IMG/VR virus record: IMGVR_UViG_3300042890_001842 | Location: 32,001 to 96,000 of that record | Reading direction: 5' to 3' (one strand) | From: a virus | DNA: 64,000 bases | Part shown: piece after piece, positions 17,016-61,575 of the stretch | Layout of the letters: each line of letters starts with the position of its first letter | Numbering within the stretch: the first letter of the stretch is position 1 | Notes under the pieces: model-generated | Told to the model about the DNA's origin: nothing | What the model saw: the letters and a program-made list of their open reading frames with translations, nothing else | Databases searched by the model: none | Translations under genes and position numbers: made by a program

Positions 17016-20000
17016 TTATGTATAGGATGTCTCACTTGGAACCCATGCTGAATAAGCTGAGGATAGTCCACCAGTATTAGCTCTTACTCTTACTCTAGCA
17101 TAGTTATTAGGAGATGCATATGGAGTAGTAAGCTGGTAAGAACCGTTAACAGTGGTAGACTGTGTATACGGTCCAGCCACAGTGGAAACTCCATTAGTAA
17201 AGCCAGTAGCACTTTGTGCAGTATAGAATTCTATTGTAAATGTACTAGCTCCAGGATGAGACCATCCTACAGCTCCAATTCCACTAAATGTAACATTTGT
17301 TGGAGTAGCTGGCGCAGTTCCACCAAAGGTTGGGAAGTAAGGGAAGTAAGGTGGGAAGAATGGGAAGAACGGTGGGAAGAATGGGAAGAATGGATTAACA
17401 GCTGGACTTCCAGTATTTGCAGTAATAATTGTTGTTTGTCCAATATCATAATCTACTACACCAGTTGATGTTCTTATTGGATTTGGAGCAAGAAACATGT
17501 TTGCAGTAGCTCTTGGTGTATATCCTCCAGGAAGGCTAGTTGGGCCAGTTGTATTAAAATTGACACGGTATCTGCTATTATTAGATAGTGTAATTGGATA
17601 ACTAGTTACAGCAGATCCACCACTAAGATAGGCAAAATTATTAGCTGCAGTAACAGCCATATTTATAATAAAAATATCAGCATACTGTTGTCCTGGATAA
17701 AACTTTGCTTCATATTCCATTACATTTGTTGTAATTCCATACTGATGTCCTCTCCATCTTACAACATATGAAGATGAATCTCCAAAATAATGAAGTGAGG
17801 TTTGCTGCAGATCTCTTGGCATTACGGCAAGGACTAATCCAGTTGTATTAGTTACTGAATCACTATCATTTCCAGTTACTTCAGTAGATGTTCCCAAACT
17901 TATATAACCATTGGTAGATACGCTTATTCTATTACCAAGTGCAAATGTGTATGATGGGGTTGTCCATATAGCAGCAAAATTTGTATTTTGAGTAGGGGTA
18001 TAAGTTTGACCAGGTTGTCTTGTAGCAACTAATTCTCCAACTGCAGGAGTTCTCCAAAAAGAAAATTGAAAACCTGCTCTGGTTCCAGGATCTGGTGCTG
18101 TATGAGCTGTTCCTGAAACAAATGGACCTGTTGTTTGAATCCCATTAGTTCCTCCAGCAGCATCCCAAGTTATACTATAAGATAAAAGTGTTGTTATTTC
18201 ATTAGTAATAACAACTTGATTTGGTAATACTCCGTTTGACCATGTAACTTCTGCACGTATTTTATAACCAATATCTGCAGCTTGAACTGTATATGTTGTG
18301 CCATTTGTTTGAACTATTGTACCACCAGCAAAAGTACCACCACTAGTGCCTCCGTCGTTTCTTCTCCAAACCCAAGTAGCTGTCGTAGCAGGGTTTCCAG
18401 TAGCATCTGTCTTTGAAAGAGTAAGATTAGATGATTGTGCACCTGTTCCAGAAATTGAGGCTGAACCTCCAGAAGGTGCTGTAGCAGTATAAGTAACAAA
18501 TGTGCTAGACCAATTTGTAAATGTATTTAATGTGGCATTTCCATTTAAAGTTGTATTTCCTAAATTTTGATTTGAAGACCTAAGCCAAAAATTCCAAGAT
18601 CCTGGTGAAGTGACAGGCAAAGATTCAAAAATGCTTCCAAGACTTGTTGATGCTGCATCGTAATACGTAGTATTTGCTGGAGCAAATCCTGATTGATTCC
18701 AGTATAACTGATAATACGGACCTGTGCCAGTGGCAGAAAATGTAACATTAAAAATTTGTGTTCCTGAATTATATGTAACTCCAGATGGAGTTGGTATTGA
18801 GCCAAGAAGTGGATTTACGGTAACAGTTGTTGTTGACTGTACATTTCCAGGTTGAGCTGTTATAGTAATAGTTTTTGATCCAGTTGTAGCATAAGTATGT
18901 GCTCTACTTTGAGAAATAGTATTACCTGAAAATGAAGAATATGTTTCCGCGCTTGTGCCATCTCCCCAGTTTATTGTATATTGAGTAGGGTATCCAGATA
19001 TTGAAAAATTGTAGGTTTTAGAAACGGTGGCCTGAACAAGAGGTGGAGAAACTCCATCAACACTAATAGCTCCTATTGAAACTGCAGGATCAACATTTGT
19101 ATTAAGGTCTCCCCAGGTTGCAAATGCTTCTACTCCTGGGTCTGTTCCATTTTTTGCAGTTACTCTACATCTTACTTTAGTGGCATAAGTTGATGATGTA
19201 GGAATAACAAATATATTTGAAGTGTTCCCAGACTCCGTCATGTTCCTATACCCGCTAAGAACTCCAGCGTCCTCATAATATTGCCATTGATATGAATATA
19301 CAGTACTAGCATTTACATTTGTCCAAGTTCCAGTGCTACATGTAAGCTGTACTCCTCTTGGCGCATATCCTCTACTGTTTAATGGTGTAACTGTAGGAGC
19401 AATTGTATTGACTGGTAATACTCCTGTTGTTTGAAATGTTACGTTCCTTACTTGAAGTGTTGGGTTCGTAGATGTTTTCCAACCATCATTTGCTACCACT
19501 TCAATTCTTCCGTAATAAGTAGTATTTGTAGATAGGCCAGGACTGTCAGTTACTGTATAAACTCTAGTATTTACTGAGGGTATTGTTATTGGAGAAATTA
19601 CATCAGGGCCAGTTGTGCTACCAGACCTTATTTTTAAAGTTTGACTATGTATATAAGTAGAATCAGTTATTCCTCCAACGGACCAAGTAAAAGTAACATC
19701 GTTATCCGTTACGTTTGAAGTTGTTAATGAATCAACTGTATGTGATACTTTAGATAATCTAGCTGCGCTTACTATTGGAAAATTATAAATAGGAGAGTTT
19801 ATATCTGAGGGGTCGGTATCTACTCTTATTCTTCCTCCAATATAATATCCTCCTTTTGCATCATCGTCAGTAACTGTGTAGGTAATTCCTGTAGATGCGT
19901 TTGAAGTATTGCCATAAAAAATAGTTGGTCCAGAAACTATTTCCCAATTTGCAATGCTGGTTTCAAGATTAATACTTCTAACTATCTGCATAGTATATTT

Positions 20001-47039: not shown

Positions 47040-48773
47040 CTATCTTGTTGAAATAACTATCCATTCACTATTTGCATAATTTATGCCATTATCTGTCATC
47101 GTCATGACAGAATCTGATGACGCCAGAACTGGTCTAGCTGTGTACTCAGAGTAGTGACGTTGGGCCTCTGTAATAGTTAAAGCCTTCTGATATATAGCAA
47201 TATTATTAAAACCGTTTGATGGCCCACCAGAAGTATTATAATTAAATTTGATATCCCCAGTTATTGCAGAGGTAAATCTAATAACAACATGATGAATTTG
47301 ACCAGAGCTAAATATTGATGACACTGAGGTGGATGAAGATCTGTCGACTCCATTTACATAGATCGCCGCAATATTTGTTTTAGATATTACACCTGATCCA
47401 TTCCATGAGAAATTGGCAGAAGTATTGTTAATAAGAGTGCTTGCTGTCAATGCGGAAGGATTATAGAAAAACTCTAAAGTATTTATATTTGAATCACAGT
47501 TTATTTTAAATCCTCCTGAAGATGAAGTCTGTATGCCGTCCCTATCCATTCTAATAAGTGTTGGATAATTAAAAGATGCTATATCATATTCACTGGAAGA
47601 GGTTATGAAATATTTACTGTTATCGCTATATATATCTTTTGTATCATAAAATTTTACTCTAAGATTTAAAAATTTAGGAAAATATTTTGAGGCATCTAAA
47701 GTTGTAAAAGTTACCTTTAAATAGATAATTCTATTTCCAAGAGTTTCTGATTTATTATACAAAGGCAAAGATGAGTTATTTGTTAAAGTATAAGGATATG
47801 TGGTCCCATCTGTTCCCATTTGTACTACTATGTTTTTATCAGCCTGCCATTCTATTTTTGAAGAAACAACACTTAAAGTAGAAGGTAACATTATCGTATC
47901 AAAAAGTATTAAAGACTTTTCTCCAGTGGACTTATTAAATCCTATATATTTTCTATTGTTCTCATAGTATGTGTCAGTAGTCATTCCAAGCTCAATTTGT
48001 TCTGGGCTAAATTCATGAACATAAGAAGGCTTTAAATTTTCTTCGTGTGTTGAAAAGAAAAATCCATTGTCCTGATTTACAATTTGAAATGCGTTTACAT
48101 GATAAATGCCATATGAATAATGAGACTCAACTTTTTTATCTGAAAGAGCGTATCTATAAACAGCTGGTGACTCTACTAAAAAAGAATCTGCTACATTGAG
48201 TGTTGGGCCAATCTTAAAAGGGCCTGTAGTAGAGTTTGTAAATTTAAAATTAGAAATTGATTTTGATGAGGCTAAAAGACCATCGACAAAAATTTGCATT
48301 GAACTTGTAGAATATGTTGCAACTACGTGAAATACTTTATTTCTACTATTCAAATTATAATAGAGCTCTTCGCTATTCAATCTAAAAAGGATATTACTAT
48401 TTTCATAATATATTCCAATTCCATTTGTTTCATCAGCAAATATCGTTGTCCTATTAGATGTTGTTATATTTGGGCGAAACCATACTTCTAAGGAAAAATC
48501 ATTATCTGAAGTTTTTATATTTCCAAATCCGCCACCTGAAACCGCCGTTCCATAAAAGTTTTTTGTTATTGGAAGAGATATTGATCCAAGATTATTTATG
48601 TTTACAGAGTAGGTTCCACCCATAACTAATGGAACAAGGTTTTGTAAAGTTACGCTAGTATATGTACCGTCGTTACCACAGCCAGATGAATCAACTGCAG
48701 TGGTTCCAGAAGATTCATCTAGTGGCCAAAATCCTATTGGATTATCCTTTAAAACTTTTACTCTATAAGACAT
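47040..48773 (-). CDS. LamG/concanavalin-A-like lectin-domain virion protein
   Basis: GFWPLDESSG..A.D.SG, FSLEVWF, HVVATY, IFVDG, and a second LamG-like domain at the C-terminus. Confidence 0.8.
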   Translation of the reverse strand: MSYRVKVLKDNPIGFWPLDESSGTTAVDSSGCGNDGTYTSVTLQNLVPLVMGGTYSVNINNLGSISLPITKNFYGTAVSGGGFGNIKTSDNDFSLEVWFRPNITTSNRTTIFADETNGIGIYYENSNILFRLNSEELYYNLNSRNKVFHVVATYSTSSMQIFVDGLLASSKSISNFKFTNSTTGPFKIGPTLNVADSFLVESPAVYRYALSDKKVESHYSYGIYHVNAFQIVNQDNGFFFSTHEENLKPSYVHEFSPEQIELGMTTDTYYENNRKYIGFNKSTGEKSLILFDTIMLPSTLSVVSSKIEWQADKNIVVQMGTDGTTYPYTLTNNSSLPLYNKSETLGNRIIYLKVTFTTLDASKYFPKFLNLRVKFYDTKDIYSDNSKYFITSSSEYDIASFNYPTLIRMDRDGIQTSSSGGFKINCDSNINTLEFFYNPSALTASTLINNTSANFSWNGSGVISKTNIAAIYVNGVDRSSSTSVSSIFSSGQIHHVVIRFTSAITGDIKFNYNTSGGPSNGFNNIAIYQKALTITEAQRHYSEYTARPVLASSDSVMTMTDNGINYANSEWIVISTR

Positions 48774-48793
48774 AAATAGATTATATCAGAATA

Positions 48794-49024
48794 TTAACCT
48801 TCTGATGGAAGTGAATCTAGCTCTGCCTTGTATACTGTTATGGCAGCTTCTAGAATTTGCAATGACTTCTCTGAATTTTCTGCACCTTGAAGATCTTCTA
48901 GTCCTTCAGAAGTCTTCTTGTTAAGAGAATGCTGGTACGCCTCTGCAGCAAACTGTGAGATTCTCTGCTCTAGAATAGCTTTCTTTTGTTCTACTGTAAG
49001 TAGTGCTGTATAGTCAATTGACAT
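48794..49024 (-). CDS. Small helical-hairpin protein
   Basis: LTVEQKKAIL, similar to 16509-16727 and 16783-16998. Confidence 0.65.
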   Translation of the reverse strand: MSIDYTALLTVEQKKAILEQRISQFAAEAYQHSLNKKTSEGLEDLQGAENSEKSLQILEAAITVYKAELDSLPSEG

Positions 49025-49228: not shown

Positions 49229-49918
49229 TTATGCATCTATATTTTTAAACATCCAGTGGCTTGGAACCATATACTTAAACCCACTTTTAACTAGATGTGC
49301 TGTATGGTGATATGGTGGAGATGATGGGAAGATAACAATACTGCCAGCCTTTGGCTTAATTGAAACAGTAAGCGCTTCTTTATTTTCTTTAGCGGCAACA
49401 TCAAAATCTTCAGAAGGCTTGCCTTCAATAATGGGAGCATCTGGAGATTTGATTGTGAATGAAAGCTCTCCACCCTCATAATCGTCATTCAAATACATTA
49501 CCATAGAATACTTTAATCTTTTATCGCCCTCTTGCTGGTCATAATGTGCTCCCATAAACGTCCCAGCTTTATACTTTTTGATTGGAAAAACTGGGTAGAA
49601 ATTTGGTTCTTCTTGATCTCCTTGTGCCAAGGCGTAGTCTTTGCATGCTTCATAGAATGCATTATTTATAGCATGAAAAATATAACTTACATCATTAGAA
49701 TCTGCTGGCTGAGATTTCTCATCTTCATTAGCATAAATAATTTTTTCTGTTCCGTAGTTATACATTTGACCACTACATGAGTCCCAGCTAGACCATTTTG
49801 ATATAGAGCTACCAAAGTCTTTAAACTCAGTTGACTCAATAACCTCTAATAGCTTTTTTGGATCCTCAAAAACATCTGTATAGTAATAAATCTTTTCTTC
49901 TAACACTTCTCTATTCAT
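49229..49918 (-). CDS. 2OG-Fe(II) oxygenase, prolyl-4-hydroxylase-like (#5)
   Basis: HYD, YLNDDYEGGEL, distal H, and K in GFKY; AAGGAG RBS before MNREV. Confidence 0.88.
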   Translation of the reverse strand: MNREVLEEKIYYYTDVFEDPKKLLEVIESTEFKDFGSSISKWSSWDSCSGQMYNYGTEKIIYANEDEKSQPADSNDVSYIFHAINNAFYEACKDYALAQGDQEEPNFYPVFPIKKYKAGTFMGAHYDQQEGDKRLKYSMVMYLNDDYEGGELSFTIKSPDAPIIEGKPSEDFDVAAKENKEALTVSIKPKAGSIVIFPSSPPYHHTAHLVKSGFKYMVPSHWMFKNIDA

Positions 49919-50657
49919 TATCGTCTCCTTTAAATTTATACTTTTGTCCATCTAAATCAAGCTTGTATCCTTCTTTTAATAGCTCTTGCCATTCTGATCT
50001 TTCAACTTCTTGAGCCTCTCTAATCTTCTTCATTTCTTCAGCCCAAGCATCTCTAACTTCTTGAGGATAATCTGATTCTGCTCTATCATCCCAGAAAGAT
50101 CCAATCGTATACCTTGTTCCTTTTGTAATTATAGTAACCTCATGCATATTTTCAAAACCTCCGTCAAATGCCGCAAGCATCCCTACCTTTGGTTTAATTG
50201 TTAAATTCTGAGAAGGAAAGCTTAGTAGTCCGCCTTCAAAATCATCATTAAGATATAAAAATGCTGCGTATCTACTTCTAGCAAAAGGACCTGTATTTCC
50301 CTTTTCATCAGTATTGTCTGAGTGTATTCTGGCATATGCGCCTGGCTCCCATTTTTGAGTATGAAAACCTATTTCGAAAATACTAGACACGTCCTTATTT
50401 CCAACCTCTGCAATTGACTCTATAAATTTATTCTTTAAATTAGAAAAAAAGTTAGAAGGCAGCCCAAATTCCTCTAACTCTGAGTCTTTATCTTGTGGCG
50501 TAACTGAAGAGTATGACTCGTAAAAAGAAATTGGCATCCAAGAAATCTTTCCATTAGACGCTTGCTTATCCAATACTTTTATTACAGCAGAACATTCTTC
50601 TGGCGAAAGAAAATCTTCATAAACAAAAATATTATTAGTATGTTTAATTAAATTCAT
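49911..50657 (-). CDS. 2OG-Fe(II) oxygenase, prolyl-4-hydroxylase-like (#4)
   Basis: HSD, YLNDDFEGG and HEV...GTRY. Confidence 0.88.
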   Translation of the reverse strand: MNLIKHTNNIFVYEDFLSPEECSAVIKVLDKQASNGKISWMPISFYESYSSVTPQDKDSELEEFGLPSNFFSNLKNKFIESIAEVGNKDVSSIFEIGFHTQKWEPGAYARIHSDNTDEKGNTGPFARSRYAAFLYLNDDFEGGLLSFPSQNLTIKPKVGMLAAFDGGFENMHEVTIITKGTRYTIGSFWDDRAESDYPQEVRDAWAEEMKKIREAQEVERSEWQELLKEGYKLDLDGQKYKFKGDDNE

Positions 50658-51325
50658 GGCTTGTTGTCTCCAGTGTGCTCTATAATTGTCCAAAAAAATG
50701 GACATGTGTATCTAATACCACTTTTAATTTCAGTTACTCCATGGATAAAATTCTTATCTCCTGGGAAGAAGTAGGCTGCTCCACGCTTTGGCTTAAACTG
50801 AATTCCTTGTAATGGAAAATATAACTCTCCGCCTTCGTAGTCATCATTTAAGTAAAATAAACTTGCTATGTCATAGTAAGGAAAATCATTTGGCAATCCA
50901 GCATCAGGTCCATCATGAAGTTCTTTATCTGCATGCGGATTTTGCAACTGTCCTGGCAGCCATCTAACTATTGTTTGTCCTGTTGGAACTGCCACTACAT
51001 TATAAAAATTTTCAATTACTGGCTTAAGCTTTTTAAATAATCCTTCTATTACTGGGCCTATCTCTGGGTCATTCTTATCTAACGAAGGTCTGCTAGCCAC
51101 TCTATCTTTCCAATAATCTGCATCATAGATAACTGTTCCATTTTCATTCGTATGACTTTCAGTAACATCCCAAATTTTAATATTTCTAGCAGAGTTTTCT
51201 AAAAAGTTAATCTCATCCTCAGTCATGAAGTTTTCTAGCTCGACTATCATATCTTTACTATTTCCAAAAAATCCAGACGGGGTGATTGACTTTCTTTCTT
51301 CGTGGCTCATATTCATTATATCCAT
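50654..51325 (-). CDS. 2OG-Fe(II) oxygenase, prolyl-4-hydroxylase-like (#3)
   Basis: HAD, YLNDDYEGGEL and HGV...GIRY; leaderless TGGTATAAT-N6-ATG promoter. Confidence 0.88.
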   Translation of the reverse strand: MDIMNMSHEERKSITPSGFFGNSKDMIVELENFMTEDEINFLENSARNIKIWDVTESHTNENGTVIYDADYWKDRVASRPSLDKNDPEIGPVIEGLFKKLKPVIENFYNVVAVPTGQTIVRWLPGQLQNPHADKELHDGPDAGLPNDFPYYDIASLFYLNDDYEGGELYFPLQGIQFKPKRGAAYFFPGDKNFIHGVTEIKSGIRYTCPFFWTIIEHTGDNKP

Positions 51326-51327
51326 AA

Positions 51328-52053
51328 TTACATTATACCATTTCTCTTTTTGGTATTGTCTAGCACTGAAAGTCTTATTACTTTTGTTTCATGAGAACCA
51401 AGGCTTTCACCCTTTTCATTGACAGCATCTCTATACCAATCTGTCCATTTTCCCTGTTGATTTATTTCTTGAGCTGCATTTCCATAGGATCTATGTGCGT
51501 TTTCTCTTTTTCTATCAGGATCAGAATAATCAAAAACATTAATTTCTGTGTCATTCATAGAAGTTAATGATATGGGAATAATTGTTGCTAACGGAGTACC
51601 AGACTTTATAACTATATTTTTATTTGCTGACCTGGCCTTGATTGCCAACGGTAAAGATACATCAAGCCAAGATGTACTTATCAATGAAGACATTGTTTCA
51701 AAGTCTTCATTAAAATAATTAACTGGGTTTATAGTCATAAGGCTAATATTCTTATCTGTTCTAAAAGTTAATCCAGTATTAAAACTTACAGTAGACTGCC
51801 CTCTTCCAGAATAAGTAAATTCTATCCCTTTTGTAATCTGGACATTGTCTGAACTTGTGTCGTTAATTCCATTCCAAGTAAACTCAACATCTTTTTCTGA
51901 ATATAAATACCATCCAACCATATTTGCCTGTGTTACTGGAAAGCATCTATAAGCATGCTTTTCTGGTGTATCGTCCATCCAATCTCTTTTGATTGACATT
52001 GGTGCTATAGATATAACAGAGTCCATAGACTTTTCAACAGATATATTAAGCAT
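51328..52053 (-). CDS. DUF6065-like protein
   Basis: RDWMD...HAYRCFP..AN..GW and GTPLATIIPI. Confidence 0.6.
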   Translation of the reverse strand: MLNISVEKSMDSVISIAPMSIKRDWMDDTPEKHAYRCFPVTQANMVGWYLYSEKDVEFTWNGINDTSSDNVQITKGIEFTYSGRGQSTVSFNTGLTFRTDKNISLMTINPVNYFNEDFETMSSLISTSWLDVSLPLAIKARSANKNIVIKSGTPLATIIPISLTSMNDTEINVFDYSDPDRKRENAHRSYGNAAQEINQQGKWTDWYRDAVNEKGESLGSHETKVIRLSVLDNTKKRNGIM

Positions 52054-52709
52054 TAGTCCTCGTCTGGTCGATACATCTCAGGGGTATGAAACTTTTTATT
52101 GTAGTCAAGCATTGTTACAATTGAATACTTTGTACCGCTATGGACTGGCATCGCTCTGTGTGGGTACATGAAATTTGATGGGAATATATATAGATCTCCA
52201 GCTTTTGGTTTAATGCTTAAATCTTGAAGTCTAAAGTAAAGTTCTCCACCTTCGTAATCATCATTAGGATAAGCAACTAAAGAAACAGTACAGTTGTAAG
52301 AAAAACCATGATCATGGTGCTCTTGAAAGTGTTGTCCTGGACCATACTTAATAAAATTAAATGCTTCCCAGTATTTTAACTCCATAATATTATAGTCTCG
52401 TCTATAATCATCAACTGCAGCAGATTGAGCATCATATACATCCTGCCACAAATTTTGTAGTTGTAAAGAAGTCTCACTTTTATCAAACTGTAAGTCAGTC
52501 TTTTTAAATTTAAAATCTGTGCAGTCTCTATAGTCTGGCATCAATTCTTTATACCCAACATATGCTGGCTGCCAAGCATATCTATTTGTTGTTCCAACTG
52601 GTGCTAACAAATTATTTAAACGATTTATTACATCAAACTCTGGCTTGATGACATTTGAATAGCGAACAATACCATTTCCAAGATTTTCTTTATCTGTCCA
52701 TGTTTTCAT
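52053..52709 (-). CDS. 2OG-Fe(II) oxygenase, prolyl-4-hydroxylase-like (#2)
   Basis: HHD, YPNDDYEGGEL, FPSNFMYPH and GTKY. Confidence 0.88.
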   Translation of the reverse strand: MKTWTDKENLGNGIVRYSNVIKPEFDVINRLNNLLAPVGTTNRYAWQPAYVGYKELMPDYRDCTDFKFKKTDLQFDKSETSLQLQNLWQDVYDAQSAAVDDYRRDYNIMELKYWEAFNFIKYGPGQHFQEHHDHGFSYNCTVSLVAYPNDDYEGGELYFRLQDLSIKPKAGDLYIFPSNFMYPHRAMPVHSGTKYSIVTMLDYNKKFHTPEMYRPDED

Positions 52710-52713
52710 AACA

Positions 52714-53496
52714 TTACCTATATTCTCTTCTAGACCAAACTTTGTCCTTATAGACTCCACCATCTGGAACCCTATATTTTTTAGCGTTATTAAAAAATTC
52801 TAATTGTATTTCTCTTTCAGACAACAACTGTTTCTCATGATACCAGTTTTCTCTTTTAAATGGAAGTACTTGCATATATGGGGTTCCTGCTGGTATTGTT
52901 CCTTCCCAATCTTTTATAACAAAAAATGGAAATGATCCAGAAAGATTAACCTTATCATTATCAACAACGCCAGTTGTATTTAAAAATGGCAAGTCAAATC
53001 TATTCATTGGAGTCATGTATAAACAACTATATCCTTCTGGAACAACTAAACCCCAGTCTGGAAACCATGAGAAGTGGTCTTCATAATATCCTGTTGGATG
53101 CTTAAATTGTGGCATTGGAGGACGTTTAGTGCAAAAAGATTTATATCTTTCGTCTTCAACTTTTACATCTATCTTTCCATAGTCATTTTTAAAAAATGTA
53201 ATATCGCAAGGAGTTTTTAAAACATACCCAGTCATAAATGCATCTAGAATAGCTGGACATGCTTTCCAGGTTGGAATCATGCCATAGTCATTAGTTGTAC
53301 CTTCTTTTGGAAATGGACAGACTGCTTGCGGAGCTTTATAATATTCTCCATTTGGCATCTTTGCAAATCTATCTGCCTCTTTATACCAATCTGGAATCTC
53401 TGATTGTGTTGGAGATGGTACTGATGGACTATTTTCTGTCAACGAAGGATTAGTCCCTCTAAATAAAATTAAATGGCTTGAATCTTCATTTTGCAT
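52714..53496 (-). CDS. Conserved phage protein, DUF6065-related
   Basis: PDWYK, K.CPAILD...GY, TGVVD.D and GTPYMQVLPFKRE; same layout as 51328-52053. Confidence 0.55.
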   Translation of the reverse strand: MQNEDSSHLILFRGTNPSLTENSPSVPSPTQSEIPDWYKEADRFAKMPNGEYYKAPQAVCPFPKEGTTNDYGMIPTWKACPAILDAFMTGYVLKTPCDITFFKNDYGKIDVKVEDERYKSFCTKRPPMPQFKHPTGYYEDHFSWFPDWGLVVPEGYSCLYMTPMNRFDLPFLNTTGVVDNDKVNLSGSFPFFVIKDWEGTIPAGTPYMQVLPFKRENWYHEKQLLSEREIQLEFFNNAKKYRVPDGGVYKDKVWSRREYR

Positions 53497-54203
53497 TAAT
53501 GAGACCTACTGCTTAAATCAGTCATAACGACTACACAGTATTTAGTACCACTCTTCATTGGTAAAGAGGCATGTTCATAAATATAGTTTGAAGGAAATAC
53601 TGCTATGTCGCCAGACTTTGGAGTATAAACCAAATTATCTAGTCGTGGAAACTGAAGCTCTCCTCCTTCATAGTCATCATTTATATATATAACAGCTGAA
53701 ACTGTGCAGTTGTAAGCTGGACCATGGTCTGCGTGTATTCTGAAATGCTTTCCTTCTCCTTCATACTTTACAAAGTTAAAAGCTTCGTAATACGTGATAT
53801 TAATTCCCCAGTATCTACAGTAGTCGTCTATACACAACTTAAGCTTTTCATAAATCTCTTGATGCAAATCAATTAGCTCTGCATTGTTATCATTCCTTGG
53901 ACCAAGGTTTTCTTGCTTATATCTAAAATCAACACAGTCTCTGGCTTTTTTAATTGGAGTTGTTGAGTTTGTTACTTGAGCCTCAGACCATGTATAAAAT
54001 TTTCCGTCTGTCAAATTTGACTCAAGAGTAGAAATATATCTTGTTGCATCTTCTGTTGAAAAAACATTATGATAAATATTTAGACCTAGACCAGGGTTTG
54101 TTGTTGTTATTGAACTGTTAACCTGTCTTTCAGTCATTCTGTTTGCAGCTGTTTCTGATCTATCTTTGTTGAACCAATGATCTTGTTGGTCTGGGTATTC
54201 CAT
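53496..54203 (-). CDS. 2OG-Fe(II) oxygenase, prolyl-4-hydroxylase-like (#1)
   Basis: HAD, YINDDYEGGEL, FPSNYIYEH and GTKY; close paralog of 52053-52709. Confidence 0.88.
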   Translation of the reverse strand: MEYPDQQDHWFNKDRSETAANRMTERQVNSSITTTNPGLGLNIYHNVFSTEDATRYISTLESNLTDGKFYTWSEAQVTNSTTPIKKARDCVDFRYKQENLGPRNDNNAELIDLHQEIYEKLKLCIDDYCRYWGINITYYEAFNFVKYEGEGKHFRIHADHGPAYNCTVSAVIYINDDYEGGELQFPRLDNLVYTPKSGDIAVFPSNYIYEHASLPMKSGTKYCVVVMTDLSSRSH

Positions 54204-54253
54204 TAAATTATTCCTGTCTCTATAAGTAAATTATACAATATTTTGTTAATTTT

Positions 54254-54496
54254 TTAAAGTGGTTCTTTTTTCCATTTTTTAATTGGACATTCAGCATCTG
54301 CAAGCATTGTTTTTGCAGGCATGAAACAACCACACAATTTACACTGTTTTGTTATTTGAATAAAATTTTCACAAGACATACACGTGTCAAGTCTACTTTT
54401 AATAATAGACTGATCTTCTATACGCTTCCCTGAATCTAATATGTGCCATGGTCTTGAGTCACCAAGAGATTTTTTCCACTCTTCCCATTTTGACAT
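54254..54496 (-). CDS. Small Cys-rich metal-binding protein (DUF6171-like)
   Basis: RL..CxxC...QCxxCGCFM..K......CP..KW. Confidence 0.7.
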   Translation of the reverse strand: MSKWEEWKKSLGDSRPWHILDSGKRIEDQSIIKSRLDTCMSCENFIQITKQCKLCGCFMPAKTMLADAECPIKKWKKEPL

Positions 54497-54498
54497 AC

Positions 54499-54936
54499 TT
54501 ATTCTGGTCCTCTGAAGCTAGAACCGTTCCAAATATCTCCTTTTGATACAAACTGATCATCTTGTATCTTTAAGAAAACAATATCCTGTGCAAATGCTGC
54601 CTCAAACATATCGTCATTTAAAGTTTCTTTTGTTTGAAAAAATGTCAAAAATATTTTATTATCACATAAAATAGAGTAAGTTCTTGTAAAATCCCAATTT
54701 AAATTCATTGGTTCAAAAGAATCTCCTCCTGAAAAAGAATTACCATCCCAAACTGCATTAGTACACGCAGCATTTTGAAATGGAGAAGTGTTCATTCCAG
54801 TAATAGGGAGACCACTATTAATTGCATTTTCGCATCTTTCTATAAATGGTGCTGGTGGGTTTGAGTGATCTGTTTGAACCTTAAATATTTCATATTCAGT
54901 TTCATTTATTTTAGTACCAATAGCATATCTATACAT
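54499..54936 (-). CDS. Hypothetical protein with duplicated W[DN]G.SF motif
   Basis: AVWDGNSF and DIWNGSSF; AGAGGA RBS. Confidence 0.65.
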   Translation of the reverse strand: MYRYAIGTKINETEYEIFKVQTDHSNPPAPFIERCENAINSGLPITGMNTSPFQNAACTNAVWDGNSFSGGDSFEPMNLNWDFTRTYSILCDNKIFLTFFQTKETLNDDMFEAAFAQDIVFLKIQDDQFVSKGDIWNGSSFRGPE

Positions 54937-54999
54937 ATATCCTCTTTTCTAAACTAATAATATCATATAAAAATAAACATTTCAATAGCAAATAACTAT

Positions 55000-55881
55000 T
55001 TAAACTGCACAGTCACAATTACAACCAGGTCCAAAACTTCCAGGATAACATCCACCACAGTTTGCTCCACAGCTTGCAAAGGTTGGGAAGTAAGGGAAGA
55101 ACGGGAAGTACGGGAAGTACGGTGGGAAGAACGGGAAGAACGGTGGGAAGAACGGGAAGAACGGGAAGAACGGGAAGAACGGGAAGTACGGGAAGTACGG
55201 TGGGAAGAACGGGAAGAACGGTGGGAAGAACGGGAAGAACGGGAAGAATGGGAAGTACGGGAAGTACGGGAAGTACGGTGGGAAGAACGGGAAGAACGGT
55301 GGGAAGAACGGGAAGAATGGGAAGAACGGGAAGTACGGGAAGTAAGGGAAGAATGGTGGGAAGAATGGGAAGAACGGTGGGAAGAACGGGAAGAACGGTG
55401 GGAAGAACGGGAAGAACGGGAAGAATGGGAAGTACGGGAAGTAAGGGAAGAATGGTGGGAAGAATGGGAAGAACGGTGGGAAGAACGGGAAGAACGGTGG
55501 GAAGAACGGGAAGAACGGGAAGAATGGGAAGTACGGGAAGTAAGGGAAGAATGGTGGGAAGAATGGGAAGTACGGTGGGAAGAATGGGAAGTAAGGTGGG
55601 AAGAACGGGAAGAATGGGAAGTACGGGAAGTAAGGGAAGTACGGGAAGAAAGGTGGGAAGAATGGGAAGTACGGTGGGAAGAACGGGAAGAACGGTGGGA
55701 AGAACGGGAAAAATGGGAAGTAAGGTGGGAAGAAAGGAAAATAAGGAGGAAAGAACGGAAAGAAGGGAGGAAAGAACGGAAAGTAAGGTGGGAAGAACGG
55801 TGCAGAAACAATAGTAGCCATAGTAACTCCTGTGGCTTTTTTATTTTTTTTGTCTTTGCTATCGTTTCCTCTTGATGCCAT
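55000..55881 (-). CDS. Pro/Phe/Tyr-repeat protein (293 aa): 27-aa basic leader, 241-aa P(P)[F/Y]F array, 25-aa six-Cys tail
   Basis: TAATG coupling to the upstream fibre gene; variation in the array is synonymous or F/Y only in this frame. Confidence 0.8.
   Translation of the reverse strand: MASRGNDSKDKKNKKATGVTMATIVSAPFFPPYFPFFPPFFPFFPPYFPFFPPYFPFFPFFPPFFPFFPPYFPFFPPFFPYFPYFPYFPFFPFFPPYFPFFPPYFPFFPPFFPYFPYFPFFPFFPFFPPFFPFFPPFFPFFPPFFPYFPYFPFFPFFPFFPPFFPFFPPFFPFFPPFFPYFPYFPFFPFFPFFPPFFPFFPPYFPYFPYFPFFPFFPFFPPFFPFFPPYFPYFPFFPFFPFFPFFPPFFPFFPPYFPYFPFFPYFPTFASCGANCGGCYPGSFGPGCNCDCAV
55078..55800. repeat. 723-bp purine-rich tandem array of 9-bp (GGGAAGWAH) and 12-bp (GGTGGGAAGAAY) units with a 99-bp higher-order period
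   Basis: Directly visible in the sequence. Confidence 0.97.
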
Positions 55882-56573
55882 TATGAGATTCCATTTCCTC
55901 CGATAAGCCACTCAGTAGTATTTATTTTTACGAGTGTACACATTCCATTTGAGGCAAGTGTTCTTCCAGATCCAGTGGTTGCAGTATTTGCTAATCTTAA
56001 TGTATCAGTAGTTATATTTATAGTTGTAGAAATACCATTACCATTAATAATAACAATCGATGTACCAATTGGAAATGCTGTAGCACTATTTGCTGGAATT
56101 GTTATTGTTTGTCCAGATGTTGTGGTCATATAAATATGCTTGCCAGCATCTGAGGCAGCTAATGTTCTTCCGCCAGATGTTACTGCAACTTGTGGCATAC
56201 CCATATATCCTGCACTAGCTGCAGCTGTGGAAGTAGTACCATCTGCAGGAAATGCAGTAGTTTTAATTGTAGAAGATCCAAGAGTAATACCAGTAACAGT
56301 TGATGTAAATATACTTGCTGCAGATGCGTTATTTGATCCAATTGTAGGGGATGCGTAGTTAAGGTTTACTGCACCAGTAAAAGATGCTCCAGATAGTGCC
56401 GCATAAGTAGAAGAAGCTGTTCCAGTTGTTAAGTAGGTTGAAGAGTCTACAGATCCATTAGCTTTAAGAAATTGAGAGGCGGTGCCTCCAGTAATAGCAA
56501 GAGAGGTGCCAGTAATAGTACCACCTGCATCAATACCGTTCTTTACTCTAAAGTTTTTATCTTGTGTTGCCAC
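55881..56573 (-). CDS. Fibre-like virion protein
   Basis: MATQDKNFRVKNG start; QFLKANGS; C-terminal TL..SDAGK...TITIP...FPIGT...W.I.G domain. Confidence 0.65.
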   Translation of the reverse strand: MATQDKNFRVKNGIDAGGTITGTSLAITGGTASQFLKANGSVDSSTYLTTGTASSTYAALSGASFTGAVNLNYASPTIGSNNASAASIFTSTVTGITLGSSTIKTTAFPADGTTSTAAASAGYMGMPQVAVTSGGRTLAASDAGKHIYMTTTSGQTITIPANSATAFPIGTSIVIINGNGISTTINITTDTLRLANTATTGSGRTLASNGMCTLVKINTTEWLIGGNGIS

Positions 56574-56610
56574 AGAAGTTCACCTATCCCTTCTTAATAT
56601 ATAGTATGTA

Positions 56611-58809
56611 CTATGCTGCTATTAAAGTTCTCATTGCTTTTGCTACTAGCCCACCATTTCCTGTAGTTGGAGTAACTGTAATAGTTACCGTTCCAGCTGT
56701 GAGAGTTGCAGTAATTGTGAATAAATCTGTAGATGTCATAACGTTACCATATTCTGAAATATGAACATCTGCAGCATTAACGGTAACTAGTAGTTCTGTT
56801 AATTCACGCTCATTTCCGCTTTTTCCTTGAATCAGATACTTTCCAGAAGTAAATGATGCTACTGCAAATGTATCCAAGGTATAACCAGTTCCAGCAGTCG
56901 CACATGTGACTGTTACAGAAGAGTCTTGTGAGTTTGCATATGCTACAGATGTTGCTGTAGCTGCTCCTATAGTTGGAGTTGTTAGTGTTGGGGAGTTTGC
57001 GAATACTAGACCACCAGATGATCCTTGCTCATCAGTTATGGCTGCTGCTAGGTTTGCTGAAGATGGAGTTGTCAAGAATGTTGCAATTCCTGATCCCATT
57101 TGAGTAACGCTTAGAGTACCGTCTCCACCAGATGTAGTTACAAGACCATTTGTTGTTAATGAGCCTAGCTTCTTATTGGTTAAGCTTTCTGTTCCAGCCA
57201 AAGTAGCAAGTGTTCCAGTAGTTGGAAGAGTTACGCTTGTATTTCCAGTTGCTGTAAATGTTTGTGTAAATGAACCAGAGTGTGTAACGTTTCCTGCCAA
57301 AGTAATTGTATTTGAACCATTATTTACTCCAGTACCACCGTATGTTGAACCAATTACTGATCCTTGCCAAGTGCCTGTTCCAATTGTTCCAAGTGTTGTA
57401 ATTGATGTTTGTCCAACATATGTTGATGCAATATCAATGCTATCTGAATTTACGGTAATTCTATTTGAAGTTCCGCCTACATCATATGCATTTCCATTTT
57501 TTACAAGACCAGCTCCAGCTGTTGCTGTAGATGCTCCTGAGAACTGTGTCCATGTTACTGCGTCTGTTCCAATTGTTGTAACTTTTGCAGTTTGAACCCA
57601 TAAAGTTGTTCCGTTCGTTGTACCTGATGCTACATAAACAAGATCTCCTGATCCCATTTCTGGTGTAGTGTTTTGATCTTCAGCACGTGTAAGTACCCAA
57701 GCTACTGCTCCTGTACCAAGAGTTGTAATAGTATAAATACCATTTTGCAATGCTGTTGTTTGGTTCTTAACAAGCACTCTGTCATTTAGTACTGGTGTCT
57801 GACCATCGATTGTAAATGCTGCCAGTGTTCCAGAGTTTGTAAGTGTTGCTCCAACTCCAGATGTTCCATTGCTATATGTTGCAGTTAAGTTAGCAGTTGT
57901 TGATGCTACTACTGCTGCGTGAGCATTTAATCCTGCTGCTGCATTATCAACATATTGCTTTGTTGCTGCTTGTAGTGCAGATGAAGGATCTTGAGCTAAT
58001 GTTACTGTTCCAGTAAATGTTGGATTATTCAGAGGAGCTCTAGATGTATCAGTTGGGTGAACGTGATCTTGTCTTGCTACTGTTGTTGAAGTTCCAACTG
58101 CAGCCGTTCCATTCATTGGTGAAGTTGCGCTTGCAAGTGCTGTTATGCTATTAAAAGATGTACCAGTTGCAACGCCAATATTTGGAGTTGTAAGAGTTGG
58201 AGATGTTGCAAATACTAATGCGCCAGATCCAGTTTCATCTGAAATAATTCCAGCCAACTGTGAAGATGTAGTTGATGAAAATGCGCTTAGGTTATTTGAT
58301 GTATATGCTACTGTTCCGCCTGCGCCAAATGCTACAGAAGAAGCATCAGTTCCTGTAAATGTTAATGTATTGCTTGCTGTAAGAGTTTTTCCGTCTGCAA
58401 TTGTTAATGTTGACCCTGTAGCAGGAGCAGTAAATGCAACTTTGTTGATAGATGTTGCTGTAGCTATGCCTAGAGTTGGAGTTATAAGAGTTGGGCTTGA
58501 TGCAAATACGAGAGATCCGCTACCAGTCTCATCAGAAATTATTCCAGCTAATTGTGAAGAAGTTGTTGATGAAAAGAATCCAAGATTGTTAGAGCTGAGT
58601 GCTAGCGTTCCAGCAGCATCTTGAATAGTAATTGCTCTTGATGCAGTAAGCGTAGTTGGGCTAATTGTAGCAGCATATGTTCCGCTTCCACCTGCCCTAC
58701 CAGTAATGATGACCGCATCTTGTGTATCCGCTGGTCTTACAATAATTCCAGAGGAGCCCTCTACTACCGCTCCACTTTTTACTCTAAAAGACTTATCTAT
58801 TGTTGCCAT
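56611..58809 (-). CDS. Long fibre-like virion protein with three internal SDETGSG.LVF..SPTL.TP repeats
   Basis: T/S/G-rich; AATKQYVD, DRVLVKNQT...NGIY fibre motifs. Confidence 0.7.
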   Translation of the reverse strand: MATIDKSFRVKSGAVVEGSSGIIVRPADTQDAVIITGRAGGSGTYAATISPTTLTASRAITIQDAAGTLALSSNNLGFFSSTTSSQLAGIISDETGSGSLVFASSPTLITPTLGIATATSINKVAFTAPATGSTLTIADGKTLTASNTLTFTGTDASSVAFGAGGTVAYTSNNLSAFSSTTSSQLAGIISDETGSGALVFATSPTLTTPNIGVATGTSFNSITALASATSPMNGTAAVGTSTTVARQDHVHPTDTSRAPLNNPTFTGTVTLAQDPSSALQAATKQYVDNAAAGLNAHAAVVASTTANLTATYSNGTSGVGATLTNSGTLAAFTIDGQTPVLNDRVLVKNQTTALQNGIYTITTLGTGAVAWVLTRAEDQNTTPEMGSGDLVYVASGTTNGTTLWVQTAKVTTIGTDAVTWTQFSGASTATAGAGLVKNGNAYDVGGTSNRITVNSDSIDIASTYVGQTSITTLGTIGTGTWQGSVIGSTYGGTGVNNGSNTITLAGNVTHSGSFTQTFTATGNTSVTLPTTGTLATLAGTESLTNKKLGSLTTNGLVTTSGGDGTLSVTQMGSGIATFLTTPSSANLAAAITDEQGSSGGLVFANSPTLTTPTIGAATATSVAYANSQDSSVTVTCATAGTGYTLDTFAVASFTSGKYLIQGKSGNERELTELLVTVNAADVHISEYGNVMTSTDLFTITATLTAGTVTITVTPTTGNGGLVAKAMRTLIAA

Positions 58810-58821
58810 ATTCTATCTCCC

Positions 58822-59640
58822 TTAAAACTTTATTCCAGTTCTAAAAAATCTTACCGTTATAGGGGATTTTCCAGATACTGGCGTAATCTTTAAACTAATT
58901 ATACCACTTGTTTTTTCTGCTGATACCGTGGCTAGCTCAGTACTTGAGTATACATCTCCATACTGAGAAATCAATAAATTTGAGCCATCATTGGCTACAA
59001 TTACCTCTGTAACATGAACTTCATTAGAATATACAAATTGAAGCAAATACTTTAAAGTTCGCCATTCTGTGTCTGAGGTGGTATCTACCGTTGTCTGATT
59101 TTCTATACCAGACACTATAGATTCTAAATTATTTGTCTTTATACCTACATTAGATATACTATTAGTAACATCTGAGGTTAAAGCAACTGTTCCAGTATTA
59201 TCTGGCAGTGTTATTGTTCTGTCCGCCGTAGGATCTAAAAGTGTTAGTATGGTCTCAAATTCATTTGCTGTTAGCCCCTCGAAAATAATATTGTCACTGA
59301 TTATAGGACTAGTTAGGGTTTTATTTGTTAAAGTTTGCGTTCCAGAATTTGTTGTTACCGTAGAATCTATATCTAAAGTTATAGTATTGGTACCATCATC
59401 GTATGTTTTGTCAAGACCAGTTCCAGCCACTAGAGCATTATTTACTGCATCTTGAGACAATTCGTCTAAATCAGAAGGTAGAATTGATGCATAAGAAAGA
59501 GATGTCCAATTTGATGAACCATTTCCTATTTTAAACTTTCCAGTATTAGTCTCAAAACCAATTTCGCCTGCTGATAAAACTGTATTACTGGAAGTCCAGT
59601 TTGATGATGTATCTCTTCTTACTTGAATCTTCGTTGCCAT
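58822..59640 (-). CDS. Fibre protein with an Mtd_N / hyaluronidase-type N-terminal domain
   Basis: IQVRRDT..NW...N.VL..GEIGFETNTGKFKIGNG..W..L.Y. Confidence 0.75.
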   Translation of the reverse strand: MATKIQVRRDTSSNWTSSNTVLSAGEIGFETNTGKFKIGNGSSNWTSLSYASILPSDLDELSQDAVNNALVAGTGLDKTYDDGTNTITLDIDSTVTTNSGTQTLTNKTLTSPIISDNIIFEGLTANEFETILTLLDPTADRTITLPDNTGTVALTSDVTNSISNVGIKTNNLESIVSGIENQTTVDTTSDTEWRTLKYLLQFVYSNEVHVTEVIVANDGSNLLISQYGDVYSSTELATVSAEKTSGIISLKITPVSGKSPITVRFFRTGIKF

Positions 59641-59659
59641 TTTACCTCCCTATTAATTA

Positions 59660-60064
59660 TCATACATTATAATATGCATTGATAAAGGTTCCTTCTGTTG
59701 AATAGCCGCCATCCAAAACTAAATCAAAACTCATTGTTGAAGCTCCACCGCCATCTATTGGACTTTGAGCTTCAGATCTATAAGCTATTTCGTTCCATAT
59801 ATTATTATAAGCAATAGCAAAACTATTTGTAACTGTGTTAAATGCTATTGTACCATTAACTGGTGACGATGCATATTCATTTACAATCTGAACAGAATTT
59901 GCTGTTGCTGCCGATGTTGTCGATGCAAGAGCAATCCATGTCGATCCGTTATAAAGCTTTAAAAGATTTAAAGAAGTATTAAAATAAATAGCACCAACTG
60001 TTCCACCCGCTGGATCTGAATCTAAAGAGGGCGGAACAATAGGCGTTAAATATTTTCTTGCCAC
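59660..60064 (-). CDS. Small fibre-associated protein
   Basis: Two G.I.FNT repeats and C-terminal DGG motifs. Confidence 0.6.
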   Translation of the reverse strand: MARKYLTPIVPPSLDSDPAGGTVGAIYFNTSLNLLKLYNGSTWIALASTTSAATANSVQIVNEYASSPVNGTIAFNTVTNSFAIAYNNIWNEIAYRSEAQSPIDGGGASTMSFDLVLDGGYSTEGTFINAYYNV

Positions 60065-60066
60065 TT

Positions 60067-61575
60067 TTAACCAACTACTACTACTCTATATTGATTTGCA
60101 GATGGTGCTGTTGCAAATTTAATTGTAACTGTATTTACTCCTGTATGTTCAACATCTGGAAAGACCTCAGCATATGGTGAGTTATTATCATAAACAGCAA
60201 CGGTAACATCTCTTGTATTAAAATTGTGAGTTACTGTGTGTGAAGTTGCTGATGAAATATCTTCTGAGTGCTTACGAACTCCATAACCTGAAGCAAATCC
60301 AAGTACTCCAGTTGAAAATTGCAATCCAGTTCCAGCATTTATTCCTAGACCATTTATGTCTACAGATAAGCCACGAGATGTATCAGTCTTTACTTCAATT
60401 GCACCACCAGTATTTGTAAGAGATGCATTTCCGCTGCTTGGAGTTACATCTGCACTAAATACTGTGCCAGTTAAAGTTAGTCCTGATCCAGCTGTATAAG
60501 TTCCAGCTCCTGAAAATTGAGTAAAGCTAATTGCATCTGTACCTATTGTTGCTGGCTTTAAAGTTTGAACCCAGCCAGTAGAAGCATAAGTGGTACCTTC
60601 TGATACATATATAAAGTCTCCAGATGCTACTTCTAATGCTGTATCAAAATCTGTTGCACGAACTGCTGATCCAGAAGATTGAACAACATAAATACCATTT
60701 TGTGATCCTGTAGTTTGTGCATTAACAAGTACTCTATCTCCTGCGACAAGAGTTACTCCATCAATTATATCTCCAGCTTCAAGTGCTGTAGACAAATCAA
60801 TATTTGATGCTACATAAACTCTGGCTGCAGCATGGATATGAAGTCCTTCTGAAACTGCATCCACATAGCCCTTTGTTGCTGCATCAGCTGAATTAACAGG
60901 TGTTGCAAGATTTGTAATTGTTTGGCTATTCATTGAGAATGAAGAGCTTGGGGCTGTTAAATCTGTTACCTTATTTGTTGTTAAAATTACAGTTCCAGAT
61001 AAATCAGGAAGTGAAATTGTTCTATCATCTGTTGGATCTATAACTTGCAAATTAGTTTCAAAATTATTTGCTGTCGAACCCTCAAACACTATAGTGGAAT
61101 CACTTAAAGATAGTCCGCTAACTATTGGGGAGCCAATCGTTTTGTTTGTAAGTGTTTCTGCTCCAGATAATGTTGCAAAGTCCCCATCAGTCAGTGCTGT
61201 ATTAAACTCTGCTATGGTTCCAGAAACTGTATTTGAGCCAAGTGCAATAGTCTTATTTGTAAGAGTTTGCGTTCCGCTATTTGTTGTTACTGCCGAATCG
61301 ATCTGTAAAGTTAAAGTTCCATTATTATCATCGTATAGTTTATTAAGACCAGTTCCATTTATAATCATTGTAGAAACTACGTCTTGAATTACTTCTGCAG
61401 CACCTGATGCTGGAATCCATGCGGTTCCGTTGTAAAAGTATAAAATATTATCAGTAGTATCAAAATAAATTTGACCAGCTACTGGACTTGATGGTGCTGT
61501 ACTTAAATTTTGAACTCTAGCATTCTGAAGCTCGTTCTTATTCAGATTTATGCTGGTTACAAATAATCTTGCCAT
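60067..61575 (-). CDS. Fibre-like virion protein
   Basis: GQIYFDT, QTLTNKT repeats, AATKGYVD, DRVLV..Q...NGIY, C-terminal VTHNFNT.DV.V domain. Confidence 0.7.
   Translation of the reverse strand: MARLFVTSINLNKNELQNARVQNLSTAPSSPVAGQIYFDTTDNILYFYNGTAWIPASGAAEVIQDVVSTMIINGTGLNKLYDDNNGTLTLQIDSAVTTNSGTQTLTNKTIALGSNTVSGTIAEFNTALTDGDFATLSGAETLTNKTIGSPIVSGLSLSDSTIVFEGSTANNFETNLQVIDPTDDRTISLPDLSGTVILTTNKVTDLTAPSSSFSMNSQTITNLATPVNSADAATKGYVDAVSEGLHIHAAARVYVASNIDLSTALEAGDIIDGVTLVAGDRVLVNAQTTGSQNGIYVVQSSGSAVRATDFDTALEVASGDFIYVSEGTTYASTGWVQTLKPATIGTDAISFTQFSGAGTYTAGSGLTLTGTVFSADVTPSSGNASLTNTGGAIEVKTDTSRGLSVDINGLGINAGTGLQFSTGVLGFASGYGVRKHSEDISSATSHTVTHNFNTRDVTVAVYDNNSPYAEVFPDVEHTGVNTVTIKFATAPSANQYRVVVVG

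Follow-up and report, generated by a model that had tools for sequence, protein, structure and literature searches.

Oxygenases that depend on 2-oxoglutarate and iron (2OG-Fe(II) oxygenases) and belong to the prolyl 4-hydroxylase (P4H) type rank with the most frequent 'auxiliary' genes in aquatic phages, and tandem arrays of them have been known since 2010 without an identified substrate. In the T4-like cyanobacterial myovirus Syn9, genes gp41-gp54 form a tandem dioxygenase array that includes a dUTPase-fold protein in which a cysteine is conserved, and metabolite tailoring was proposed as its function (Iyer, Abhiman, de Souza & Aravind 2010, PMC2938197). A viral prolyl 4-hydroxylase with viral Pro-rich repeats as its proposed substrates has been described in the chlorovirus PBCV-1 (Eriksson et al. 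1999, as related in PMC7019647). The locus analysed here resembles both. It lies in IMG/VR virus record IMGVR_UViG_3300042890_001842, of which positions 32,001 to 96,000 were studied (64,000 nucleotides, called the window below), and consists of a gene for a protein made mostly of Pro, Phe and Tyr (the PFF protein, named for its commonest repeat unit), followed on the same strand by two small genes, five P4H-type oxygenase genes and two genes of the DUF6065 type. Tandem phage dioxygenases with a dUTPase-fold protein, and a viral P4H with Pro-rich repeats, are known already. The co-variation of a Cys-rich tail with the two small genes, and the dUTPase fold predicted for DUF6065, are new here. 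Within the library searched, no paper on PFF-type arrays or on DUF6065 was found.

Like this cassette, the Syn9 array has several classical 2OG-Fe(II) oxygenases that are diverged and stand in tandem, includes a DUF6065 homologue and is located directly behind tail-fibre genes. It differs in having halogenases and a member of the JmjC type, and in lacking a PFF array; the cassette of the present phage comes with a candidate protein substrate. PBCV-1 likewise combines a virus-encoded P4H-type enzyme with virus-encoded Pro-rich repeats, but it is a eukaryotic giant virus with a single enzyme, whereas the phages considered here have 5-13 paralogues and a pure P/F/Y polymer. The PBCV-1 repeats are of the Pro-Ala-Pro-Lys type rather than Pro/aromatic.

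The PFF gene most likely begins with the ATG at 55881; this codon and the stop codon of the upstream gene overlap in a TAATG. The protein has a Lys-rich N-terminus of 27 residues, an array of 239 residues and a 27-residue tail with six Cys (TFASCGANCGGCYPGSFGPGCNCDCAV). A sequence-only reading made before this analysis had given the array 241 residues; its gene layout otherwise stood, with all of the genes it listed lying on the minus strand at the positions given in Table 1. The array contains 95 P, 121 F and 23 Y and nothing else, and it divides without remainder into 72 units of the form P{1,2}[FY]F (36 PFF, 14 PYF, 13 PPFF and 9 PPYF). The second aromatic of every unit is F, and exchange between F and Y at the first aromatic position is the sole amino-acid change. 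Tandem Repeats Finder reported repeat periods of 9, 78 and 99 bp. A polymer of this kind (239 residues, three amino acids, a strict P{1,2}[FY]F grammar and variable length) has no described counterpart and could deserve attention as a biomaterial or for a new principle of adhesion.

Three reading frames are open over the array. Its composition accounts for this, and openness is in itself no proof of coding. Judged by its pattern of variation, the PFF frame is the translated one: the nucleotide differences among units are silent in this frame only and alter an amino acid in both other open frames, and in relatives the array runs in frame from FN3 domains. Pro is encoded by CCA (35), CCG (46), CCT (13) and CCC (1), and both TTC/TTT and TAC/TAT are used for the aromatics. 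An antisense collagen-like (GRT)n frame and a frame of S, H and R were rejected because the unit variation alters amino acids there. A collagen-like protein does not fit in any case, as the coding frame has no Gly and the antisense GRT triplets are interrupted by V every 2-4 triplets. The ESM Atlas model of the repeat protein has a predicted local distance difference test (pLDDT) value of 0.39, and the structural neighbours of this model are meaningless.

PFF genes and oxygenase genes occur together well beyond this phage. A degenerate DNA pattern for four units, scanned over IMG/VR, seeded the search and is present in at least 120 stretches. Among the matches listed, 82 PFF genes seeded by the pattern have enough sequence on their downstream side, and for 69 of these an oxygenase or DUF6065 gene lies on the same strand no more than 3 kb downstream; the remaining ones are short fragments, or second PFF genes in phages with a battery elsewhere. 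Starting from DUF6065 protein b (DUF6065b) gives the same picture, as a PFF array is found upstream in all 71 loci, of 80 seeded, that extend far enough, and wherever the locus allowed a check, the gene next upstream is the PFF gene. Ten PFF-bearing contigs were found via the PFF pattern or the capsid, without selection for the enzymes (G001, G002, G005, G014, G022, G028-G031 and G033), and all ten have 6-13 genes of family PF13640. The sequence-only reading had suggested looking for co-occurrence and adjacency of PFF, oxygenase and DUF6065 genes in metagenomic phages.

Comparison of whole genomes extends this to gain and loss. Among relatives without PFF whose capsids are at least 84% identical to that of the window, G019 and G020 (both complete) and G013 (84% complete) have no oxygenase, and G018 (complete) has two. 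In G019 the portal and protease are 86% and 91% identical to those in the window, yet this genome has none of the fibre block, the PFF gene or the enzymes. Conversely, G005 has a capsid, portal and protease of only 36%, 48% and 39% identity, and cassette enzymes of 63-79% identity with a PFF gene in front of them; fibre proteins are 30-45% identical between backbones, as against 63-79% for the enzymes. As far as gene distribution can tell, the PFF array and the oxygenase battery are gained, lost and moved together, and this is more than chance. The presence or absence of the cassette among phages with nearly identical capsids also provides natural controls for effects on host range or adsorption. 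The G014 cassette stands between a PFF/PYF protein and a (PPV/PPI)n protein, which have proline in common. The latter, at the far end of the cassette (L292:98-847), is 250 aa long and has a PASTA-like N-terminus in addition to its repeats, and the G014 PFF protein ends in the same PPVTPPIFPSGPAKP motif.

We consider it an even bet that the PFF stalk is a virion protein whose prolines are hydroxylated by the oxygenases of the cassette. Several points weigh against this interpretation. Neither a PFF array nor a Pro-rich neighbour was found in Syn9, despite its fibres, gp43 and tandem dioxygenases; G018 (capsid 93%, L290 = G018:33001-53000) has fibre genes and two oxygenases with no PFF array; and two cyanophages with related oxygenases, S-SCSM1 and ACG-2014f, lack PFF. 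The cassette type therefore predates the array, and some of its members must have other targets. Because fibres, PFF gene and enzymes are lost together, co-loss cannot separate action on the PFF protein from action on the fibre set, and the counts of co-occurrence fall short of full independence, since every PFF contig belongs to a single broad group of phages. To our knowledge, none of the known P4H substrates (X-Pro-Gly, PAPK, SPPPP) has a proline between two aromatics. For the one viral P4H that has been studied, from PBCV-1, no hydroxyproline was detected in the virions (PMC7019647). The sequence-only reading had held that it would be undermined by oxygenase clusters equally common in related phages with no Pro-rich repeat. 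This is in part the case: the homologous Syn9 array stands without any such repeat, and G018 has two oxygenases without PFF. Its proposal that the oxygenases modify the repeat gains from co-occurrence, co-loss and co-transfer, and the link between enzyme and substrate is plausible, on good circumstantial evidence. G018 is a natural reduced variant, with two oxygenases, one DUF6171 gene and one DUF6065 gene on the opposite strand.

The same facts could mean that the cassette modifies other targets, such as fibres generally or other virion or host proteins, and that the PFF protein is a co-travelling component of the fibre module. The oxygenases of Syn9 and G018 stand directly behind fibre genes without PFF, three oxygenases stand behind the short-tail-fibre gene of S-SCSM1, and the fibre block, PFF gene and enzymes are jointly missing from G019 and from Streptomyces phage Muntaha. 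We regard this explanation as unlikely, though worth keeping in view, because it is set against the large batteries (6-13 enzymes), which were seen only with PFF arrays, the position of the PFF gene as immediate upstream neighbour, the fact that the fibre proteins are not Pro-rich, and the lower conservation of fibres than of enzymes between backbones.

The relatives of the PFF protein suggest what the array does. The family comprises 115 distinct complete open reading frames (ORFs) among the matches listed, and 112 of them have folded FN3-type domains or more ahead of the array. Most start with MAxGKKxGKKSQASNDFLEP, continue with ~200 residues of FN3-type domains (the Pfam fn3 match in L068 is 1e-11) and then enter the array, for a total of 280-440 aa; some members have one, three or more domains in this position. 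In most members the array is 25 to ~180 residues long. The region after it is modular and may be none at all, a Cys-rich knob, a (VG)n spacer with a knob, or a Hint/intein-like domain. In L017, L020, L061 and L063 a (VG)6-8 dipeptide spacer separates the PFF array from the Cys-rich tail. In some others (L068:7852-9171, L069:2603-3907, L073:3068-4387 and L138:3560-6478) the array is followed by a Hint/intein-like domain, recognised from sub-threshold Pfam Hint_2 / Intein_splicing matches, which starts with Cys and ends with HN; if this domain cleaves itself, a reactive thioester would remain at the end of the array.

A short PFF linker also occurs in the window itself, between domains of the distal tail protein listed in Table 1. 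The gene for this protein directly follows the J-like central fibre and tape-measure genes, and its product has domains in common with a 960-aa PFF-bearing protein of the relative L083. Because the array stands behind FN3 domains in relatives and a PFF linker lies inside a tail protein, its domain context marks the array as a structural element, a stalk or linker within proteins of the fibre region and tail, and not as the core of a ribosomally synthesised and post-translationally modified peptide (RiPP). The sequence-only reading had favoured a virion appendage over released peptides, and in this the relatives agree with it. It had also drawn attention to a RiPP-like layout, in which a leader and a repeated core would be tailored and then cleaved to give short PFF/PPFF peptides. 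An N-terminus of 26-27 aa is indeed present in this phage and in two close relatives, and tailoring-type enzymes follow, yet these are the only 3 of the 115 members with such a 'leader'. An array of P, F and Y alone has no cleavage motifs, and no protease, cyclase or exporter was seen in the cassette. With the same array serving as an internal linker of a tail protein, we find a RiPP scarcely credible here.

The 293-aa protein of this phage is thus the minimal, extreme member of a large family in uncultured freshwater phages, whose hosts are probably actinobacteria. The relatives in IMG/VR appear to be of lake origin, judged by sample series and not by sample metadata. The four-unit pattern gave 4 matches in 185,579 prokaryotic species genomes, all on contigs of metagenome-assembled genomes and at least one from a lake, and these are most likely mis-binned phage DNA. 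The array is 239 residues long here, compared with roughly 140 in L001 (7871-8494) and 65 in L002 (6466-6843), and the DUF6065b proteins of these two phages are 95% and 92% identical to that of the window. Such a strong length difference between near-identical phages indicates that the array expands and contracts quickly.

All five oxygenases of the window match PF13640 (2OG-FeII_Oxy_3), at 31.6-55.8 bits against a curated cut-off of 27; the whole genome has seven PF13640 genes. H136, D138, H216 and K/R-Y are invariant in an alignment of six oxygenases (the five in the window and one outside), in keeping with the five P4H-type enzymes with intact HxD...H and R/K residues that had been recognised from the sequence. 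The five are only 23-29% identical to each other. The nearest solved relatives of oxygenase D are the P4H of B. anthracis, LH3 and mimivirus L230, and those of oxygenase B are prolyl 3-hydroxylase 1 (P3H1) and the B. anthracis P4H, all at weak E values from 1e-5 to 1e-3. Every one of these relatives is a peptidyl Pro/Lys hydroxylase of repetitive structural proteins, and the assignment of the window oxygenases to the peptidyl-Pro/Lys hydroxylase type is supported at the level of such matches. Mimivirus L230, animal LH3 and the B. anthracis P4H (which acts on collagen-like exosporium proteins) resemble the proposed system in hydroxylating a long repetitive structural protein of their own organism. 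Unlike the array here, which has no Gly, their substrates are Gly-X-Y collagen repeats. With L230 and LH3 the hydroxylation is followed by glycosylation, and this genome likewise has an oxygenase gene overlapping a GT61 gene, although GT61 is not constant.

The two small genes between the PFF gene and the oxygenases go with the type of tail. Where the tail has at least four Cys, the gene for the 145-aa protein, that for the six-Cys protein or both follow in 53 of 56 non-redundant PFF genes; where it does not, they follow in 2 of 77. A tree of DUF6065b has at least 17 changes in tail type and at least 19 in whether the partner genes are there, and seven independent, supported tree contrasts all point in the same direction (sign test p ~0.016). 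The Cys-rich tail and the 145-aa and six-Cys genes are therefore one module, and this co-variation is newly found here. It argues that the two genes serve the knob and not the array. The place directly behind a fibre gene is the usual one in phages for tip-specific assembly factors.

Both small genes had been noticed from the sequence, as a W-x-G-repeat protein and a Cys-rich protein, and both descriptions were confirmed. The 145-aa protein has no Pfam or PHROG family match. Its AlphaFold2 model has a pLDDT of 92, and no clear fold relative was found for it, the best being a cyanophage fibre (Z 4.9 over 56 residues), with cyclophilin-like folds at Z ~3. Prediction of a complex between this protein and the Cys-rich tail scored 0.25 against a mark of 0.32. 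The 80-aa protein scores 24.0 bits against DUF6171 (PF19668), below the cut-off of 27, and its six-Cys pattern is kept in 39 homologues.

Two DUF6065-type genes, also listed in the sequence-only reading, are interleaved with the oxygenase genes. Protein a is assigned by Pfam; protein b has no Pfam match, falls in the same PHROG (phrog_7084) as a and can be aligned with it, with four invariant residues (W, C, G and D). The AlphaFold2 model of DUF6065b has a pLDDT of 86, and its top 22 structural matches by VIA-align are all dUTPases or dCTP deaminases, with Z 9.1 for the best (root-mean-square deviation 3.4, 120 aligned) and 5.4 for the 22nd; the next matches reach 5.0 and 3.8. The corresponding Foldseek E value is ~3e-4. 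The best sequence match in the PDB is the dUTPase of white spot syndrome virus, across motifs III-IV, and is non-significant. DUF6065b keeps the motif III/IV-like strands G-x-[VI]-D-x-D and G-T-P-x-A-Q. When the DUF6065 alignment was inspected by eye, no counterpart was evident of the phosphate-binding motifs II and V of dUTPases, of which V is C-terminal and P-loop-like; in the model, the DUF6065b C-terminus is helical instead. On the strength of its predicted structure, DUF6065b has a dUTPase-like fold.

Such a fold raises the question of nucleotide or DNA modification, in which the dUTPase-fold protein would bind nucleotides, the oxygenases would oxidise bases and transferases encoded elsewhere in the genome would decorate them. 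The motif III/IV-like strands fit this scheme, as do a weak Tet_JBP match of one oxygenase (17.7 bits, cut-off 34.9) and the GT4, GT61 and sulfotransferase genes of the genome. We nevertheless hold it to be very improbable. All of the oxygenases match best as PF13640/P4H-type enzymes and none reaches the Tet/JBP or AlkB thresholds; motifs II and V are not evident by eye, and the aspartates of motif III are missing from DUF6065 paralogue a; the cassette is surrounded by fibre and head genes rather than replication genes; and of 9 other genomes with the cassette, only 1 has GT61.

A DUF6065 profile built from this lineage matches Syn9 gp43 (5e-17, hhalign probability 96%), so the association of oxygenases with DUF6065 was already known; the Pfam DUF6065 profile detected no homologue in Syn9, S-SCSM1 or ACG-2014f. 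The shared partner also bears on another possibility, in which a small molecule or a free peptide metabolite would be made or tailored by the tandem dioxygenases together with the dUTPase-fold protein, and adjacency to PFF would be historical. The Syn9 array contains two tryptophan halogenases and was read as secondary-metabolite tailoring (PMC2938197). The DUF6065 family is in addition very large, with 4012 clusters at 50% identity, and haloviruses of the HF2 type have DUF6065 without an oxygenase. Against a metabolite, no non-ribosomal peptide synthetase, polyketide synthase, ATP-grasp enzyme or halogenase was found among the annotated genes (cassette, fibre, head and tail neighbours, and a second island described below), the cassette is set within late structural genes, the nearest characterised enzymes act on proteins, and PFF and battery are gained and lost together. 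We judge a metabolite product to be improbable. In haloarchaeal viruses of the HF1/HF2 type (Halorubrum phage HF2, L199, record 48119-49003) the DUF6065 homologue is distant, at 26-29% identity, and lies beside ribonucleotide reductase (RNR) and baseplate genes; their genomes contain no PF13640 oxygenase.

To return to hydroxylation of the PFF protein, we infer the following scheme. The body of the protein would be an extended, probably polyproline-II-like Pro/aromatic stalk in the virion, with a short basic peptide at its N-terminus and a Cys-rich knob at its far end, and the PFF gene and the genes downstream of it would form one mobile cassette. Pro at every third or fourth residue, with bulky neighbours, should favour a polyproline-II-like rod, and 239 residues would reach ~70 nm. 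The diverged P4H-type paralogues would hydroxylate prolines of the array, and possibly of other Pro-rich fibre segments, with separate paralogues taking the separate contexts F-P-F, F-P-P, P-P-F and P-Y. 4-Hydroxylation stabilises polyproline-II helices. In this protein it could stiffen and solubilise an extremely hydrophobic rod. The 145-aa and six-Cys proteins may serve the knob, through folding, through supply of metal or disulfides, or as a partner at the tip.

The rod could do more than hold the knob. Aromatic side chains on a polyproline-II helix would form ladders ~9 A apart, a spacing suited to stacking against glycans, and the rod itself may thus act as an adhesive. One may go further and imagine a phage 'extensin', a pure P/F/Y rod turned into a hydroxyproline-rich stalk by a mobile set of 5-13 prolyl and perhaps aromatic hydroxylases, with ladders that bind cell-wall glycans. 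We put this forward tentatively, as a possibility that falls short of even. If true, a natural substrate and a role would be known for the first time for the 2OG-Fe(II) oxygenases that are widespread in phages, and the conserved, mobile pairing with a Pro/aromatic polymer makes the question of the substrate directly testable. The likeness to plant and algal extensins, which are hydroxyproline-rich glycoproteins (HRGPs), lies in the idea of a rigid Pro-rich rod stabilised by hydroxyproline, in the presence of Tyr and in a multigene set of hydroxylases. The PFF protein was not classed with the extensins or other HRGPs. Its array has only P{1,2}[FY]F units, with no Ser, no Ser-Pro(3-5) and, because Y is always followed by F, no Y-x-Y, and arabinosyltransferase families were not found.

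Table 1. Features of the PFF cassette and its surroundings; positions are those of the window unless marked otherwise (aa, amino acids)
Feature	Position	Strand	Remarks
PFF-stalk protein (putative stalk), 293 aa	55000..55881	-	Lys-rich N-terminus 55801-55881; P/F/Y array 55084-55800; six-Cys tail 55003-55083 + stop
145-aa protein, two W-[DN]-G-x-S-F motifs	54499..54936	-	co-varies with Cys-rich tail
80-aa six-Cys protein (CxxC...CxxCGC...CP), DUF6171-like	54254..54496	-	phrog_13558 2e-16
2OG-Fe(II) oxygenase E (PF13640)	53496..54203	-	Pfam 1.5e-11; HxD..H..K
DUF6065-like protein b	52714..53496	-	phrog_7084 9e-31; dUTPase-like fold model
2OG-Fe(II) oxygenase D (PF13640)	52053..52763	-	Pfam 9.3e-15
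DUF6065 protein a	51328..52053	-	Pfam PF19541 6.2e-32, 111 bits (cut-off 26.6)
2OG-Fe(II) oxygenase C (PF13640)	50654..51325	-	Pfam match; catalytic residues kept
2OG-Fe(II) oxygenase B (PF13640)	49911..50705	-	Pfam match; catalytic residues kept
2OG-Fe(II) oxygenase A (PF13640)	49229..49951	-	Pfam match; 27-residue insert in beta-helix core
Four large fibre-like genes and small 134-aa ORF (59660-60064)	55881..61575	-	PHROG tail-fibre and structural matches
Distal tail protein, 1109 aa	17016..20345	-	internal 21-residue PFF linker 17331-17393 between domains
Second tailoring island	L204:3873-9080 (genome 99873-105080) and L204:777-1814		outside window; oxygenase, GT61, sulfotransferase, GT4

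The sequence-only reading had treated the locus as phage-encoded, and its context leaves this intact. The genome is complete at 112,011 bp (CheckV completeness 100%, IMG/VR class direct terminal repeats), with an exact direct terminal repeat of 3,269 bp at genome 1-3269 and 108743-112011, outside the window, and a GC content of 36.7%. Capsid, portal and protease are 56-62% identical to those of Streptomyces BE-cluster phages of the family Stanwilliamsviridae. This identity, together with a whiB gene (genome 19702-19875, outside the window), suggests that the source is an uncultured phage whose host is probably actinobacterial. Megablast of the region against cultured phages gave 0 matches. A tblastn search with the repeat protein gave none either, an outcome without weight because the low-complexity filter of BLAST masks a query of this kind. 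The closest cultured relative is Streptomyces phage Muntaha, in which the RNR genes are followed almost directly by the portal and which has no oxygenase, no fibre block and no PFF gene. The block of four fibre genes adjoins the PFF gene on its upstream side and accompanies the cassette, being missing from the cassette-free relative G019 (the genomes compared were G019, G018, G005 and Muntaha). Outside the window, at genome 22658-24700, lies a gene for a 681-aa protein with a (PEPT/PEPS)-rich linker.

Finally, the genome has a second tailoring island, also outside the window. There a sixth P4H-type oxygenase gene overlaps a GT61 gene and is followed by a sulfotransferase gene and a second GT61 gene, with a GT4 gene upstream. 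GT61 as an obligatory second step was rejected as a general feature, since its rarity among the other cassette-bearing genomes places it outside the conserved system. The island itself resembles systems that hydroxylate and then glycosylate or sulfate, including the bacterial operons described by Iyer et al. (PMC2938197), and GT61 adjoins an oxygenase gene again in G026.

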